The position numbers and the translations under genes are program-made. From the NCBI RefSeq assembly GCF_054482595.1, contig NZ_CM137008.1: a DNA stretch of 64,000 bases. One strand, written 5' to 3'. Below the pieces are notes generated by a model. It did not search any database. It was given only the letters and a program-made list of their open reading frames with translations, and was not told the origin of the DNA. Each line of letters starts with the position of its first letter. Positions within the stretch are counted from its first letter, which is position 1. Positions 40,030 to 45,986 of the stretch are shown one piece after another.

Positions 40030-40227
40030 CTTGTATTGATTAGCAGTCAAAATCATTGAAGAACATTTCACTCGCTAAAGGCAACATTATGTATCTTCAA
40101 TTTATTAAGTTAAAAACAGCTCAGCTTCTGTAAAGTTTTTATATATCAGTTTTATGAGAATCATTTTACATAAGCCTGTAATAACAGGAAGGCAACAATC
40201 TCGTTCTCAACTCTATGGAGATTAGTT

Positions 40228-42264
40228 ATGGATACGCCACGTCCACAGTTATTAGATTTTCAATTTCATCAGAATAACGACAGTTTTACCCTACATTTTC
40301 AACAACGTCTTATTTTAACCCATAGCAAAGATAATCCTTGTTTATGGATTGGCTCAGGTATAGCGGATATCGATATGTTCCGCGGTAATTTCAGCATTAA
40401 AGATAAACTACAGGAGAAAATTGCGCTTACCGACGCCATCGTCAGCCAGTCACCGGATGGTTGGTTAATTCATTTCAGCCGTGGTTCTGACATTAGCGCC
40501 ACGCTGAATATCTCTGCCGACGATCAGGGCCGTTTATTGCTGGAACTACAAAACGACAACCTTAACCACAACCGTATCTGGCTGCGCCTTGCCGCTCAAC
40601 CAGAGGACCATATCTACGGCTGCGGCGAACAGTTTTCCTACTTCGATCTGCGTGGCAAACCGTTCCCGCTATGGACCAGTGAACAAGGCGTTGGTCGCAA
40701 CAAACAAACCTATGTCACCTGGCAGGCCGACTGCAAAGAAAATGCGGGCGGCGACTATTACTGGACTTTCTTCCCACAGCCTACGTTTGTCAGCACGCAG
40801 AAGTATTACTGCCATGTTGATAACAGTTGCTATATGAACTTCGACTTTAGTGCCCCGGAATACCATGAACTGGCGCTGTGGGAAGACAAAGCAACGCTGC
40901 GTTTTGAATGTGCTGACACATACATTTCCCTGCTGGAAAAATTAACCGCCCTGCTGGGACGCCAGCCAGAACTGCCCGACTGGATTTATGACGGAGTAAC
41001 GCTCGGCATTCAGGGCGGGACGGAAGTGTGCCAGAAGAAACTGGACACCATGCGTAACGCGGGCGTGAAGGTCAACGGCATCTGGGCGCAGGACTGGTCC
41101 GGTATTCGTATGACCTCTTTTGGCAAACGCGTGATGTGGAACTGGAAGTGGAACAGCGAAAACTACCCGCAACTGGATTCACGCATTAAGCAGTGGAATC
41201 AGGAGGGCGTGCAGTTCCTGGCCTATATCAACCCGTATGTTGCCAGCGATAAAGATCTCTGCGAAGAAGCGGCACAACACGGCTATCTGGCAAAAGATGC
41301 CTCTGGCGGTGACTATCTGGTGGAGTTTGGCGAGTTTTACGGCGGCGTTGTCGATCTCACTAATCCAGAAGCCTACGCCTGGTTCAAGGAAGTGATCAAA
41401 AAGAACATGATTGAACTCGGCTGCGGCGGCTGGATGGCTGACTTCGGCGAGTATCTGCCCACCGACACGTACCTGCATAACGGCGTCAGTGCCGAAATTA
41501 TGCATAACGCCTGGCCTGCGCTGTGGGCGAAGTGTAACTACGAAGCCCTTGAAGAAACGGGCAAGCTCGGCGAGATCCTTTTCTTTATGCGCGCCGGTTC
41601 TACCGGTAGCCAGAAATACTCCACCATGATGTGGGCGGGCGACCAGAACGTCGACTGGAGTCTCGACGATGGCCTGGCGTCGGTTGTCCCGGCGGCGCTG
41701 TCGCTGGCAATGACCGGACATGGCCTGCACCACAGCGACATTGGCGGTTACACCACCCTGTTTGAGATGAAGCGCAGCAAAGAGCTGCTGCTGCGCTGGT
41801 GCGATTTCAGCGCCTTCACGCCGATGATGCGCACCCACGAAGGTAACCGTCCTGGCGACAACTGGCAGTTTGACGGCGACGCAGAAACTATCGCCCATTT
41901 TGCCCGTATGACCTCCGTCTTCACCACCCTGAAACCTTACCTGAAAGAGGCTGTCGCGCTGAATGCGAAGTCCGGCCTGCCGGTTATGCGCCCGCTGTTC
42001 CTGCATTACGAAGACGATGCGCACACTTACACCCTGAAATATCAGTACCTGTTAGGTCGCGACATTCTGGTCGCTCCGGTGCATGAAGAAGGCCGTAGCG
42101 ACTGGACGCTCTATCTGCCGGAGGATAACTGGGTCCACGCCTGGACGGGTGAAGCGTTCCGGGGCGGGGAAGTTACCGTTAATGCGCCCATCGGCAAGCC
42201 GCCGGTCTTTTATCGCGCCGATAGCGAATGGGCGGCACTGTTCGCGTCGTTAAAAAGCATCTAA
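40228..42264 (+). CDS. yihQ: Sulfoquinovosidase (GH31 alpha-glucosidase family)
   Basis: 678 aa; GH31 catalytic region (WADFGEY, GGYTT). Confidence 0.92.
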   Translation: MDTPRPQLLDFQFHQNNDSFTLHFQQRLILTHSKDNPCLWIGSGIADIDMFRGNFSIKDKLQEKIALTDAIVSQSPDGWLIHFSRGSDISATLNISADDQGRLLLELQNDNLNHNRIWLRLAAQPEDHIYGCGEQFSYFDLRGKPFPLWTSEQGVGRNKQTYVTWQADCKENAGGDYYWTFFPQPTFVSTQKYYCHVDNSCYMNFDFSAPEYHELALWEDKATLRFECADTYISLLEKLTALLGRQPELPDWIYDGVTLGIQGGTEVCQKKLDTMRNAGVKVNGIWAQDWSGIRMTSFGKRVMWNWKWNSENYPQLDSRIKQWNQEGVQFLAYINPYVASDKDLCEEAAQHGYLAKDASGGDYLVEFGEFYGGVVDLTNPEAYAWFKEVIKKNMIELGCGGWMADFGEYLPTDTYLHNGVSAEIMHNAWPALWAKCNYEALEETGKLGEILFFMRAGSTGSQKYSTMMWAGDQNVDWSLDDGLASVVPAALSLAMTGHGLHHSDIGGYTTLFEMKRSKELLLRWCDFSAFTPMMRTHEGNRPGDNWQFDGDAETIAHFARMTSVFTTLKPYLKEAVALNAKSGLPVMRPLFLHYEDDAHTYTLKYQYLLGRDILVAPVHEEGRSDWTLYLPEDNWVHAWTGEAFRGGEVTVNAPIGKPPVFYRADSEWAALFASLKSI

Positions 42265-42309
42265 TCACATCCGCCCGTGGGGAAACTCATGGGCAAAGGG
42301 AGAACATCG

Positions 42310-43695
42310 ATGAGTCACATCACAACGGAAGATCCAGCAACTTTACGCCTGCCCTTTAAAGAGAAACTCTCTTACGGTATTGGCGACCTGGCCTCTAACA
42401 TCCTGCTGGATATCGGTACGCTTTATCTTTTGAAGTTTTATACCGACGTTCTGGGGCTGCCAGGCACCTATGGCGGCATTATCTTTTTGATTTCAAAATT
42501 CTTTACTGCGTTTACCGATATGGGTACCGGCATTATGTTGGATTCCCGACGCAAGATCGGTCCAAAAGGTAAGTTCCGTCCTTTTATTCTGTATGCGTCA
42601 TTCCCGGTCACCTTACTGGCGATCGCCAACTTTGTCGGCACACCGTTTGATGTCACCGGTAAAACGGTGATGGCCACTATTCTGTTTATGCTTTACGGAC
42701 TGTTTTTCAGCATGATGAACTGCTCCTACGGCGCAATGGTTCCCGCTATCACCAAAAACCCCAACGAACGCGCCTCACTGGCGGCATGGCGTCAGGGCGG
42801 CGCTACGCTGGGCCTGCTGCTGTGCACGGTGGGATTCGTGCCAGTGATGAATCTTATCGAGGGTAATCAGCAACTTGGCTATATCTTCGCCGCCACGCTG
42901 TTTTCACTGTTCGGCCTGCTGTTTATGTGGATCTGCTACTCAGGCGTGAAAGAGCGTTATGTCGAAACCCAACCAACCAATCCGGCGCAAAAGCCTGGCC
43001 TATTGCAATCTTTCCGCGCAATTGCCGGTAACCGCCCACTGTTCATTCTGTGTATTGCCAACCTCTGCACCTTAGGGGCGTTTAACGTCAAGCTCGCCAT
43101 TCAGGTCTATTACACCCAGTACGTACTTAACGATCCCATCCTGTTGTCGTATATGGGATTTTTCAGCATGGGCTGTATTTTCATCGGCGTGTTCCTGATG
43201 CCTGGCGCAGTCAGACGTTTTGGTAAGAAGAAGGTCTATATCGGCGGCCTGCTGATTTGGGTGCTGGGCGATCTGCTCAACTATTTCTTCGGCGGCGGCT
43301 CGGTCAGCTTTGTGGCGTTCTCCTGCCTGGCGTTCTTCGGCTCAGCGTTTGTTAACAGCCTGAACTGGGCGCTGGTTTCCGACACCGTCGAGTACGGCGA
43401 GTGGCGCACCGGCGTGCGTTCGGAAGGCACGGTCTACACCGGCTTCACCTTCTTTCGCAAAGTGTCTCAGGCGCTGGCTGGTTTCTTCCCCGGCTGGATG
43501 CTGACGCAAATTGGCTATGTGCCGAACGTCGCACAGGCTGACCACACCATTGAAGGGTTACGCCAGTTGATCTTCATCTACCCAAGCGCACTGGCGGTAG
43601 TCACCATTGTGGCGATGGGTTGCTTCTACAGCCTGAACGAGAAGATGTATGTCCGCATTGTGGAAGAGATAGAAGCCCGTAAACGCACGGCGTAA
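42310..43695 (+). CDS. yihP: GPH-family sugar:cation symporter
   Basis: Start set at MSHITTEDPATLRL... (ORF opens at 42277); about 45 percent identical to adjacent yihO, so tandem paralogs. Confidence 0.85.
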   Translation: MSHITTEDPATLRLPFKEKLSYGIGDLASNILLDIGTLYLLKFYTDVLGLPGTYGGIIFLISKFFTAFTDMGTGIMLDSRRKIGPKGKFRPFILYASFPVTLLAIANFVGTPFDVTGKTVMATILFMLYGLFFSMMNCSYGAMVPAITKNPNERASLAAWRQGGATLGLLLCTVGFVPVMNLIEGNQQLGYIFAATLFSLFGLLFMWICYSGVKERYVETQPTNPAQKPGLLQSFRAIAGNRPLFILCIANLCTLGAFNVKLAIQVYYTQYVLNDPILLSYMGFFSMGCIFIGVFLMPGAVRRFGKKKVYIGGLLIWVLGDLLNYFFGGGSVSFVAFSCLAFFGSAFVNSLNWALVSDTVEYGEWRTGVRSEGTVYTGFTFFRKVSQALAGFFPGWMLTQIGYVPNVAQADHTIEGLRQLIFIYPSALAVVTIVAMGCFYSLNEKMYVRIVEEIEARKRTA

Positions 43696-43737
43696 TAATA
43701 ATAAACGACGCCCTGCGGGGCGTTATAAGGAGTGATT

Positions 43738-45141
43738 ATGTCTGACCATAATCCACTGACATTAAAACTGAATCTGCGGGAAAAAATCGCCTATGGTATG
43801 GGCGACGTCGGTTCGAATTTAATGCTCTGCATCGGTACTCTGTATCTCCTCAAATTTTATACCGATGAATTAGGGATGCCTGCTTACTATGGCGGGATTA
43901 TCTTTCTGGTGGCGAAGTTTTTTACCGCGTTTACCGATATGCTCACCGGATTTTTACTCGACTCGCGGAAAAATATTGGGCCTAAAGGCAAATTTCGTCC
44001 CTTTATTTTATATGCAGCAGTTCCGGCGGCGTTAATTGCAACGCTCCAGTTTATCGCCACCACCTTTTGTTTGCCGGTTAAAACGACGATTGCCACCGCG
44101 CTGTTTATGATGTTTGGACTTTCATACAGTCTGATGAACTGCTCGTATGGTGCGATGATCCCGGCAATTATCAAAAACCCGAATGAGCGCGCGCAGCTCG
44201 CGGCTTACCGCCAGGGTGGTGCAACCATAGGGCTATTGATTTGTACCGTGGCGTTTATTCCGTTGCAGTCGCTTTTTTCTGACTCAACCGTCGGTTATGC
44301 CTGTGCGGCACTTATGTTCTCCATTGGCGGCTTTATTTTTATGATGCTGTGCTACAGAGGCGTCAAAGAGCATTATGTGGACACAGCGCCAACCGGACAT
44401 AAAGCCAGTATTCTCAAATCTTTTTGCGCGATATTTCGTAATCCACCATTGCTGGTTTTATGCATTGCTAACCTGTGTACTCTGGCGGCATTTAATATCA
44501 AACTGGCGATTCAGGTCTATTACACCCAGTATGTGCTGAATGATATTAATTTATTGTCGTGGATGGGATTCTTCAGTATGGGATGCATCCTCGTCGGCGT
44601 ATTACTGGTGCCAGTAACTGTAAAATGTTTTGGTAAAAAACAGGTTTATTTAGCTGGCATGGTGCTGTGGGCGGTGGGTGATATACTGAATTATTTCTGG
44701 GGAAGTAACTCTTTCACTTTCGTCATGTTCTCTTGTGTCGCCTTTTTTGGCACGGCCTTTGTAAACAGCCTGAACTGGGCACTGGTACCAGATACCGTAG
44801 ATTACGGTGAATGGAAAACCGGTATTCGTGCCGAAGGTTCTGTTTATACCGGTTATACCTTCTTTCGTAAAATTTCTGCCGCACTTGCTGGCTTCTTGCC
44901 AGGCATTATGCTGACGCAAATTGGTTATGTTCCCAACATCGCGCAAAGCGATGCGACATTACAGGGTTTGCGTCAGCTCATTTTTATCTGGCCTTGTGCA
45001 CTGGCAATTATTGCTGCATTGACGATGGGATTCTTTTACACACTCAATGAAAAACGGTTTGCATTGATTATTGAGGAAATCAACCAACGCAAAAATAAAG
45101 AGATGGCGACAGAGGAAAAAACGGCTTCCGTAACGTTATAA
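43738..45141 (+). CDS. yihO: GPH-family sulfoquinovose transporter
   Basis: 467 aa from MSDHNPLTLKLNLREKIAYGMGDVGSN... Confidence 0.88.
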   Translation: MSDHNPLTLKLNLREKIAYGMGDVGSNLMLCIGTLYLLKFYTDELGMPAYYGGIIFLVAKFFTAFTDMLTGFLLDSRKNIGPKGKFRPFILYAAVPAALIATLQFIATTFCLPVKTTIATALFMMFGLSYSLMNCSYGAMIPAIIKNPNERAQLAAYRQGGATIGLLICTVAFIPLQSLFSDSTVGYACAALMFSIGGFIFMMLCYRGVKEHYVDTAPTGHKASILKSFCAIFRNPPLLVLCIANLCTLAAFNIKLAIQVYYTQYVLNDINLLSWMGFFSMGCILVGVLLVPVTVKCFGKKQVYLAGMVLWAVGDILNYFWGSNSFTFVMFSCVAFFGTAFVNSLNWALVPDTVDYGEWKTGIRAEGSVYTGYTFFRKISAALAGFLPGIMLTQIGYVPNIAQSDATLQGLRQLIFIWPCALAIIAALTMGFFYTLNEKRFALIIEEINQRKNKEMATEEKTASVTL

Positions 45142-45208: not shown

Positions 45209-45901
45209 ATGAAAAAGATTAATGCAATAATTTTATTATCTTCTCTGACCTCTGCCTCGGTATTTGCTGGCGCATACGTCGAAAACAGGGAGGCATATAA
45301 TCTTGCCTCCGATCAGGGCGAGGTTATGCTACGTGTGGGTTATAACTTCGATATGGGCGCGGGTATTATGTTAACCAATACCTACACCTTTCAGCGAGAA
45401 GATGAACTAAAACATGGCTATAATGAAATTGAAGGTTGGTATCCTTTATTCAAACCAACCGATAAATTAACCATCCAGCCCGGTGGCTTAATTAATGATA
45501 AGAGTATCGGTTCGGGTGGTGCAGTGTATCTGGACGTCAACTATAAATTTGTACCATGGTTTAATCTGACAGTACGAAATCGCTATAACCATAATAACTA
45601 TAGTTCAACAGATTTGAGCGGGGAACTGGATAATAATGACACCTATGAAATTGGCACCTACTGGAATTTTAAAATCACCGATAAATTTTCCTATACATTT
45701 GAGCCACATTATTTCATACGCGTAAATGACTTTAATAGCAGCAATGGAAAAGATCATCACTGGGAAATCACTAATACCTTCCGTTATCGCATTAATGAAC
45801 ACTGGCTGCCTTATTTCGAATTACGTTGGTTAGATCGTAATGTCGAACCGTACCACCGCGAGCAAAACCAGATTCGTATCGGGACGAAGTATTTCTTCTG
45901 A
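45209..45901 (+). CDS. ompL: Outer membrane porin L
   Basis: 230 aa from MKKINAIILLSSLTSASVFA (signal peptide); beta-barrel with terminal YFF. Confidence 0.88.
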   Translation: MKKINAIILLSSLTSASVFAGAYVENREAYNLASDQGEVMLRVGYNFDMGAGIMLTNTYTFQREDELKHGYNEIEGWYPLFKPTDKLTIQPGGLINDKSIGSGGAVYLDVNYKFVPWFNLTVRNRYNHNNYSSTDLSGELDNNDTYEIGTYWNFKITDKFSYTFEPHYFIRVNDFNSSNGKDHHWEITNTFRYRINEHWLPYFELRWLDRNVEPYHREQNQIRIGTKYFF

Positions 45902-45910
45902 TGTGAAACT

Positions 45911-45986
<76 letters not shown>

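Follow-up and report, generated by a model that had tools for sequence, protein, structure and literature searches.

Tandem GPH-family transporter genes yihP and yihO in the Escherichia coli sulfoquinovose cluster: a probable ancient duplication with recurrent natural fusions

Two adjacent carriers, YihP and YihO, are encoded in the sulfoglycolytic Embden–Meyerhof–Parnas (sulfo-EMP) gene cluster of Escherichia coli and have been assigned different roles in the metabolism of sulfoquinovose (SQ). YihO is called the SQ importer: a ΔyihO strain shows no growth on SQ, whether aerobic or fermentative, and loses this growth although yihP is still there (PMC6278857). YihP has been described as 'most likely' the exporter of 2,3-dihydroxypropane-1-sulfonate (DHPS) (PMC6278857; also PMC8006165, PMC12890257 and an Arthrobacter preprint). 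The import/export hypothesis goes back to Denger et al. (2014), here cited through later papers (PMC6278857, PMC8006165, PMC12608037). An identity of ~65% between the two proteins has already been stated, together with the remark that YihP 'has not been experimentally characterized' (bioRxiv 10.1101/2021.11.10.468170). SQ induces the two genes more than 30-fold (PMC12608037). SQ glycosides need import for intracellular hydrolysis (PMC8006165), and an older Salmonella literature ties yihO and yihP to the O-antigen capsule. Here, the yihP–yihO pair (positions 42310-45141) was analysed in a stretch of 64,000 nucleotides (the window) from NCBI RefSeq assembly GCF_054482595.1, contig NZ_CM137008.1.

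With a probability that we put at about 0.85, the two genes are the intact, co-oriented glycoside-pentoside-hexuronide (GPH) paralogs of the E. coli sulfo-EMP cluster, derived from an ancient tandem duplication and both kept. The 3.5 kb around the pair is 100% identical in DNA to many annotated complete E. coli chromosomes, in which the gene order is the same as in the segment: yihQ (sulfoquinovosidase), yihP and yihO (both MFS transporter) and ompL. The rest of the sulfo-EMP cluster (csqR, yihV, yihU, yihT, yihS and yihR) is found upstream of yihQ in the window. The pair is placed between yihQ and ompL within the csqR-yihV/yihUTSRQPO-ompL cluster, an arrangement shared by 73 species loci. An original prediction, made from the letters of the window, had proposed adjacent paralogs of similar length, GPH transporters of the SQ cluster, named yihP and yihO. 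The lengths are 461 and 467 residues, the coordinates match the RefSeq coding sequences (CDSs) exactly, and the family profiles described below and the RefSeq annotation agree; the observation is confirmed and the genes were correctly named. As a finding it is ordinary and already known.

YihP and YihO were compared by BLASTP, which gave 294 identical residues out of 456 (64%), 81% positives, 3 gaps and E = 0, far from the 25% identity that the original prediction had set as a lower limit for its pairwise alignment. The Smith–Waterman score was 1601, compared with 43 ± 6 in 100 shuffles (z ~252). The five shared sequence blocks on which the prediction was built are all present in both proteins at equivalent positions: LYLLKFYTDxLG (YihP 38, YihO 35), GGIIFLxxKFFTAFTDM (55, 52), NCSYGAMxPAIxKNPNERA (137, 134), QVYYTQYVLND (265, 259) and SLNWALVxDTVxYGEW (350, 344). 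The nucleotide identity of the genes is 65%, and 71, 84 and 41% at the three codon positions; the likeness is therefore held at the protein level and is not that of a recent DNA repeat. The proportion of synonymous differences (pS) between the paralogs is 0.75, which is saturated, and the nonsynonymous divergence (dN) is 0.26. The synonymous divergence (dS) is undefined at this pS, no dN/dS estimate is possible between yihP and yihO, and ortholog comparisons were used instead. No recent gene conversion was detected in the window: a sliding window gave no low-pS tract and the longest exact nucleotide match between the genes is 23 nt. The paralogy and the ~65% identity were already known, and nothing in the genes themselves differs from the E. 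coli K-12 pair.

The age of the duplication was assessed in a scan with one genome per species, which gave 73 loci. Two full-length tandem GPH genes were present downstream of yihQ in 64 of these; the remaining loci are mostly cut by contig ends or carry pseudogenes. The cluster was found in Escherichia, Citrobacter, Enterobacter, Salmonella, Klebsiella, Pantoea, Rahnella, Yersinia, Serratia, Hafnia, Budvicia and Pectobacterium, and in a Succinivibrionaceae metagenome-assembled genome (MAG) (Anaerobiospirillum). In a profile search of 1.8 billion cluster representatives, YihP and YihO formed one isolated group, the score dropping from 596 bits to 375 at the next full-length relative. Neighbour joining with seven outgroups gave bootstrap support of 100% for the joint P+O clade, 93% for P (the upstream genes) and 52% for O (the downstream genes). 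P–O identity within a genome is 57–71% everywhere (median 67%) and concerted evolution is therefore absent; among members of the P and O clades, no conversion tract was seen as a run of three or more diagnostic residues of the opposite type. Of 457 aligned columns, 252 agree on one residue in ≥90% of each clade, and just 12 are clade-diagnostic, each through a conservative change (L/M, F/Y, F/L, S/P, V/I, S/A, T/S, F/Y, Q/A, F/L, T/A and Y/F). The window genes are P-type at all 12 in the upstream gene and O-type at all 12 in the downstream gene. A single tandem duplication before the Enterobacterales radiation is the simplest reading of these comparisons. The in-cluster duplication that had been proposed stands as a duplication; it is neither recent nor specific to E. 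coli, given the saturated sites and the clades extending across the Enterobacterales and to Anaerobiospirillum.

Selection was estimated against E. whittamii, for which the comparison is unsaturated. The dN/dS values were 0.028 for yihP and 0.049 for yihO, with 0.025–0.073 for the pathway enzymes, and by this codon-based measure both copies are under strong purifying selection. Having been retained separately for so long under such selection, YihP and YihO are therefore probably not redundant. In most comparisons the dN of yihO exceeds that of yihP by a factor of ~2–2.7 (1.1 with Citrobacter sp. wls619), and the O/P ratio of all-against-all distances is 1.3. YihP ranks first in conservation among the cluster proteins in 42 of 51 loci (among loci L004-L076), and the mean identities to the E. 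coli proteins are 90% for YihP, 77.5% for YihO and 77–87% for the enzymes. Part of this gap between YihP and YihO stems from the position of the E. coli YihO in a divergent sub-lineage of the O clade. The sub-functionalisation suggested in the original prediction is upheld as far as divergence in general is concerned, by the purifying selection, the 12 diagnostic positions and the ΔyihO phenotype; the idea itself is the published hypothesis and is not new.

Family membership was examined with profile libraries. Both proteins match the NCBIfam profile of the GPH:cation symporter family (TIGR00792; Transporter Classification TC 2.A.2) over profile positions 1–437 of 437, with 536.6 bits for YihP and 523.7 bits for YihO (cutoff 231), and Pfam MFS_2 (PF13347) over the full length, with 262 and 261 bits (cutoff 27). 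The scores for the MelB equivalog (NF007749) were 215 and 216 bits against a cutoff of 456, those for the glucuronide transporter equivalog (NF007353) 296 and 286 bits against 528, and both proteins are also well under the equivalog cutoffs for YagG and PRK11462. TauE/SafE (TSUP, PF01925), the match to be expected for a canonical sulfonate exporter, was hit by neither protein, the Pfam matches being MFS_2 and MFS_1 only. Judged by these profiles, GPH membership is solid, and YihP and YihO would belong to no characterised equivalog besides their own. The loop 2–3 signature, which we take to be close to PROSITE PS00872 and to read [DG]-x3-G-x3-[DN]-x6-8-[GA]-[KRHQ]-[FSA]-[KR]-[PT]-[FYW], matches YihP at position 70 (DMGTGIMLDSRRKIGPKGKFRPFILYAS) and YihO at position 67 (DMLTGFLLDSRKNIGPKGKFRPFILYAA).

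The evidence on the fold comes from YihP, for which an AlphaFold2 model was built on an 80-sequence alignment. The predicted local distance difference test score (pLDDT) was 90.7 and the predicted template-modelling (TM) score (pTM) 0.86, with 12 long helices and a C-terminal helix. The top PDB matches of this model in Foldseek were MelB structures (TM score 0.86–0.88), followed by MFSD2A. By sequence, the closest solved relative is MelB 4M64 (E = 9e-39 for YihO); neither YihP nor YihO has a solved structure of its own. Both proteins would be secondary carriers with 12 helices.

Residue roles in MelB were taken from PMC8329300 and mapped onto both clades through the alignment, which has ~25% identity. 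At the sugar site, Asp19 and Asp124 of MelB are replaced by Asn in YihP and YihO, Lys18 by Ser, Arg149 by Gln, Trp128 by Gly and Trp342 by Asn. Val376 is replaced by Arg beside the kept equivalent of Lys377, which gives an invariant Arg-Lys pair in helix XI (R383-K384 in YihP, R377-K378 in YihO). In MelB, Asp59 is the proposed H+ site and Asp55 pairs with Lys377 (PMC8329300). Among the cation-site equivalents, Asp59 is kept (D70 in YihP, D67 in YihO), Thr121 is replaced by Ser, and Asp55 and Asn58 are both replaced by Thr, the last two changes being invariant in both clades. Asp55 is kept in all seven outgroups and in the second gene of Chimaeribacter. In both carriers the central pocket, of the MelB type, would thus be remodelled for a sulfonated anion, with negative charge removed and the freed Lys, together with the Arg, holding the sulfonate. 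With only the Asp59 equivalent left of the cation site, coupling to H+ would be likelier than coupling to Na+, as these residue changes suggest.

Of the 23 mapped positions, 20, including every polar or charged one, carry a single invariant residue shared by the two clades. The pocket differences between YihP and YihO are Tyr/Phe at MelB W116, Phe/Tyr at Y120 and Phe/Tyr at Q372, and two of the three are among the 12 diagnostic positions. Since the pockets differ by only these three Tyr/Phe swaps, closely related sulfonates are probably handled by both, and it is most likely the carriers that differ, in a few hydrogen bonds to such ligands.

A TauE/SafE-family gene (PF01925) accompanies yihP and yihO within the cluster in 17 of the 73 species loci and is absent from the window. 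Its place is either the yihR–yihQ or the yihQ–yihP interval; yihQ is followed directly by yihP in 60 of the 73 loci, and in 10 more the TauE gene lies in between. In the window, a spacer at ~40038-40171 stands in the place of the ~980 bp that carry TauE between yihR and yihQ in E. whittamii. The family is that of sulfonate/sulfite exporters, the type usually proposed for sulfonate export.

A deep sub-lineage of the O clade was observed in the tree, in which YihO of E. coli and E. whittamii groups with that of Citrobacter sp. wls619 and of an Enterobacteriaceae MAG (L001, L004, L049, L050 and the E. albertii fusion) and sits apart from the other Enterobacteriaceae YihO. YihR in these loci is 70–100% identical to the E. 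coli protein, versus ~56% elsewhere, and all of them carry TauE except L001, which is the window's own haplotype. The pattern suggests that cluster haplotypes were exchanged between genera.

Among the YihP homologs, fusion proteins were encountered in which the first ~50–145 residues are YihP and the remainder is YihO. At the DNA level, these are encoded by a single in-frame gene of 1413 nt (470 residues) between yihQ and ompL, which replaces the tandem pair. Such genes are the product expected of unequal homologous recombination between the paralogs with a loss of ~1.43 kb. In E. coli the junctions lie at nt 158–168 (2013C-4187, CP027546) and 192–198 (WEM25, CP061530) and, in two further lineages, at 403–417 (L077/L078) and 430–432 (L079); elsewhere they lie at nt ~426–430 (E. 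albertii L002) and 420–435 (Ca. Symbiopectobacterium L062) and, less sharply, at ~363–440 (S. bongori L003). The distinct crossover points number at least five, so that such unequal recombination is a recurrent event. A 15-nt exact match between yihP and yihO at aligned nt 189 is within the WEM25 junction region. All of the junctions (7–8 events) are within the first 435 nt, while the DNA of the two genes is most alike in the 3′ half; with so few events this 5′ clustering is only suggestive, and it could stem from selection for domains that fit together or from the small sample. The fusions occur on haplotypes both with the cluster TauE gene (as in E. coli WEM25) and without it (as in E. coli 2013C-4187). 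They are rare: a query with the deleted segment gave any match in 3891, and a match at ≥80% coverage in 3869, of the 3898 complete E. coli genomes with the region, so that at most ~29 of the 3898 miss all or part of the deletable segment. A 2025 paper on yih cassette variants makes no mention of fusions or of TauE.

For S. bongori, a junction at nt 676 mapped with E. coli parents was rejected as misleading, Salmonella proxies giving the range stated above. The gene of Lelliottia nimipressuralis (L066), considered as a fusion, was rejected as a lone divergent O-type gene. One gene of the reciprocal type (P0009; YihO N-terminus, YihP C-terminus) was seen upstream of a normal yihO on a metagenome contig of ~4× coverage (L082 1016-2392); it may have arisen by gene conversion at the 5′ end of yihP or through chimeric assembly.

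Regarding function, YihO would be the SQ importer, in line with the literature and the knockout phenotype, and YihP would either release the end product DHPS or import SQ glycosides such as sulfoquinovosyl glycerol. The strict division of the literature, in which YihO imports SQ with a proton and YihP is a dedicated exporter of DHPS, the 1:1 end product, is a reasonable possibility that we place somewhat short of even odds. The assignment is repeated in PMC6278857, PMC12890257 and PMC8006165 and in one RefSeq name ('Putative 2,3-dihydroxypropane-1-sulfonate exporter'). The pathway yields one DHPS per SQ, so stoichiometric release is needed, and the E. coli cluster in the window holds no other transporter candidate. 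The mapped YihP pocket has two Tyr hydroxyls fewer than that of YihO (at the equivalents of MelB Y120 and Q372) and would fit a smaller ligand poorer in hydroxyls but still bearing the sulfonate; DHPS is the C4–C6 end of SQ, and a pocket of a paralog offering fewer hydroxyl donors would plausibly suit it. However, YihP is experimentally uncharacterised (bioRxiv 10.1101/2021.11.10.468170), and GPH carriers are cation symporters that normally act in uptake, with the coupling Asp kept in both proteins. TauE-type exporter genes alongside both paralogs in 17 of 73 loci also speak against a dedicated exporter, as do the single-fusion genomes without TauE (E. coli 2013C-4187 and S. bongori). Nor is the top conservation of YihP in 42 of 51 loci obviously expected of a replaceable efflux route.

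Alternatively, both proteins could be importers of different preference, one for free SQ and the other for SQ glycosides (e.g. sulfoquinovosyl glycerol, cut by the cytoplasmic YihQ), with DHPS leaving through TauE-type carriers where present, by SQ/DHPS exchange or through an unlinked exporter. We regard this as a tentative possibility. The glycosides must enter the cell to be hydrolysed there (PMC8006165), and yihP directly follows yihQ in most loci (60/73). The 20 of 23 shared pocket positions, with all polar and charged ones among them, the coexistence of the TauE gene with both paralogs and the tightest constraint of the cluster on YihP point the same way. The cluster in the window, by contrast, has no TauE gene, its yihR–yihQ spacer lacking the ~980-bp stretch in which E. 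whittamii has the gene. The end of growth on free SQ in ΔyihO alone fits two importers and is no demonstration of them. A more specific version, which we consider doubtful, would make YihP the main and most constrained uptake carrier (e.g. for SQ glycosides) and not a DHPS exporter, with DHPS exiting by SQ/DHPS exchange or through TauE-type carriers; in this version one chimera, with helices I–IV of YihP and the remainder of YihO, could replace both proteins, as the recurrent natural fusions would show.

Redundant isoforms kept for dosage, i.e. two copies of the same importer, would be consistent with the 64% identity, the shared operon, the co-induction on SQ and the near-identical pockets. 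This explanation is already disfavoured and very unlikely: ΔyihO by itself prevents growth on SQ, the lineages have been distinct since before the Enterobacterales radiation with neither concerted evolution nor conversion tracts, and there are 12 fixed clade-specific residues and asymmetric rates. Hardly credible is the older Salmonella view of the proteins as permeases of O-antigen capsule assembly or translocation, for which biofilm papers use yihO/yihP mutants as O-antigen-capsule-deficient strains, since the genes are co-conserved with the sulfoglycolysis enzymes yihQ, yihS, yihT, yihU and yihV across 73 species and are induced by SQ, and the ~460-residue GPH symporter fold with its small MelB-like pocket would, going by the model, not be that of a polysaccharide exporter.

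Several points weigh against the reading adopted here, an anciently duplicated pair of GPH carriers with both members kept. The O clade, with its bootstrap of only 52%, is weakened by the long Anaerobiospirillum branch. The pocket mapping stands on an alignment of ~25% identity to MelB, without a ligand-bound structure, and no transport measurement for YihP or YihO was found in the literature searched. The coexistence of TauE with both paralogs lessens the need for YihP as an exporter. Finally, the single-fusion genomes may mean either that two carriers are not strictly required or that these lineages are losing the pathway.

Further irregular loci were recorded in the species scan. yihO is split into two open reading frames (ORFs), apparently as a pseudogene, in S. 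enterica diarizonae (L026 11420-12841), Yersinia aldovae (L073) and Leclercia adecarboxylata (L074); yihP is intact in L026 and is represented by shorter ORFs in L073 (419 residues) and L074 (438 residues). yihQ is fragmented in Ca. Symbiopectobacterium (L041, L062). In Chimaeribacter (L057, L058, L060) the gene after yihP encodes a distant GPH protein that is 46–48% identical to both paralogs and branches outside P+O. Neither yihS nor yihT had a detected homolog in these Chimaeribacter loci or in those of Yersinia, Serratia and Hafnia (L048, L056, L059, L061, L063, L064 and L067), although yihV, yihU, yihQ, yihP and yihO are present there; these loci may represent a variant pathway.

The ATG codons at 42310 and 43738 were preferred as starts because each is preceded by a Shine-Dalgarno sequence; longer ORFs initiated by GTG (at 42277 for yihP and 43732 for yihO) were rejected. 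A promoter scan gave 7 sites versus 5.9 expected and provides no evidence of an internal promoter. The terminator-like matches on the + strand are all inside coding sequence, with unconvincing tails. The yihP–yihO pair is present in 3898 of 5426 complete E. coli genomes (72%), which is consistent with the published existence of a short cassette (yihTUVW) besides the long one (ompL-yihOPQRSTUVW; PMC12608037).

The spacer between the genes carries a GC-rich hairpin with a minimum free energy of −13.4 kcal/mol as RNA (z = −2.7). It is not a classical terminator because no U-tract follows it at 43707-43724, and no matching family was found in Rfam. Of 65 two-gene loci, 39 have a similar hairpin, with loops mostly of the UNCG type and with compensatory changes in the stem (GCGCCC/GGGCGC, ACGCCC/GGGCGT, GCGCTC/GAGCGC and GCGCCG/CGGCGC). 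As a guess, it could be a barrier to mRNA decay or processing that gives the paralogs different dosage. A sub-threshold Rfam match to naRNA4 (40.6 bits, gathering score 59.5) was obtained at 45905-45977 of the window, in the spacer between the convergent genes ompL and yihN; a palindromic element of the repetitive extragenic palindromic (REP) type is its probable source. The features are listed in Table 1.

Table 1. Positions of the genes, signals and recombination zones in the window, and of fusion and TauE genes in other loci (locus coordinates).
Feature	Position	Strand	Remarks
yihQ	40228-42264	+	Sulfoquinovosidase gene, 45 nt ahead of yihP; ORF map, RefSeq annotation
Shine-Dalgarno-like AAGGGAGA	42296-42303	+	6 nt 5′ of the yihP ATG; read from sequence
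yihP CDS, 461 residues	42310-43695	+	Upstream paralog; ORF agrees with RefSeq WP_000018387.1; annotated putative DHPS exporter
Crossover zone 1	42467-42507	+	yihP gene nt 158-198; matching yihO zone 43886-43926
Crossover zone 2	42712-42741	+	yihP gene nt 403-432, MMNCSYGAM(V/I)P, helix IV; matching yihO zone 44131-44160
GC-rich hairpin (G)ACGCCC-UGCG-GGGCGU(U)	43707-43724	+	Between the yihP stop codon and the yihO ribosome-binding site
Shine-Dalgarno AAGGAG	43727-43732	+	5 nt 5′ of the yihO ATG; read from sequence
yihO CDS, 467 residues	43738-45141	+	Downstream paralog; ORF agrees with RefSeq WP_001297066.1
ompL	45209-45901	+	Outer-membrane porin gene, next 3′ of yihO; ORF map, RefSeq annotation
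Fusion gene, E. coli 2013C-4187	L081 5001-6413		Complete
Fusion gene, E. coli WEM25	L080 3896-5308		Complete
Fusion genes, E. coli	L077/L078 3001-4413		
Fusion gene, E. coli	L079 2992-4404		
Fusion gene, E. albertii	L002 6001-7413		CP117606
Fusion gene, S. bongori	L003 6001-7428		CP035676
Fusion gene, Ca. Symbiopectobacterium endolongispinus	L062 9992-11422		
TauE gene	L002 2939-3814		
TauE gene	L004 6935-7810		
TauE gene	L080 830-1705		

What is new here beyond the literature is the dating of the duplication, the asymmetry of rates, the pocket comparison, the fusion alleles, the variable TauE gene and the intercistronic hairpin. The entry of SQ and its glycosides and the exit of DHPS are the only steps of the E. 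coli pathway lacking biochemical proof, and what remains of interest is the role of YihP and the natural fusion alleles as a possible means of resolving it. Three handles on the transport question are provided: the invariant candidate sulfonate-binding residues (the helix XI Arg-Lys pair and the Asn residues in place of the MelB aspartates), the three Tyr/Phe positions that are the sole pocket differences between the paralogs, and the natural single-fusion strains with and without the cluster TauE gene, which are ready-made genetic tests.

Among known carriers, MelB, the Na+/H+/Li+:melibiose symporter of Salmonella and E. coli (PDB 4M64, 7L16/7L17), belongs to the same family and has the same fold at ~25% identity, and the loop 2–3 motif G-K-F-[KR]-P and the equivalents of Asp59, Lys377 and Thr373 are conserved in YihP and YihO. 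The expected substrate of YihP and YihO is an anionic sulfonate, whereas that of MelB is a neutral galactoside. The best sub-threshold NCBIfam matches are the glucuronide transporters of the UidB/GusB type (NF007353; 296 and 286 bits) and the putative symporters of the YagG/YicJ type; the UidB/GusB-type proteins are likewise GPH carriers of an anionic sugar. The nearest outgroups share with YihP and YihO the helix XI Arg-Lys pair and the Asn at the MelB Asp124 position, but all outgroups keep the Asp55 equivalent (Thr in YihO and YihP) and are without the Ser-Asn pair at MelB positions 18 and 19.

The fusion alleles have their counterparts in haemoglobin Lepore and in the red/green opsin hybrids, which are fusion genes arising from unequal crossing-over between tandem paralogs. 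As in those cases, an in-frame gene begins with the 5′ portion of the upstream copy and continues into the 3′ portion of the downstream one, recurrently and at different junctions. In contrast to them, the yihP and yihO parents have only 65% DNA identity and exact matches of at most 23 nt, the events are rare, and the pair in the window is unrecombined.

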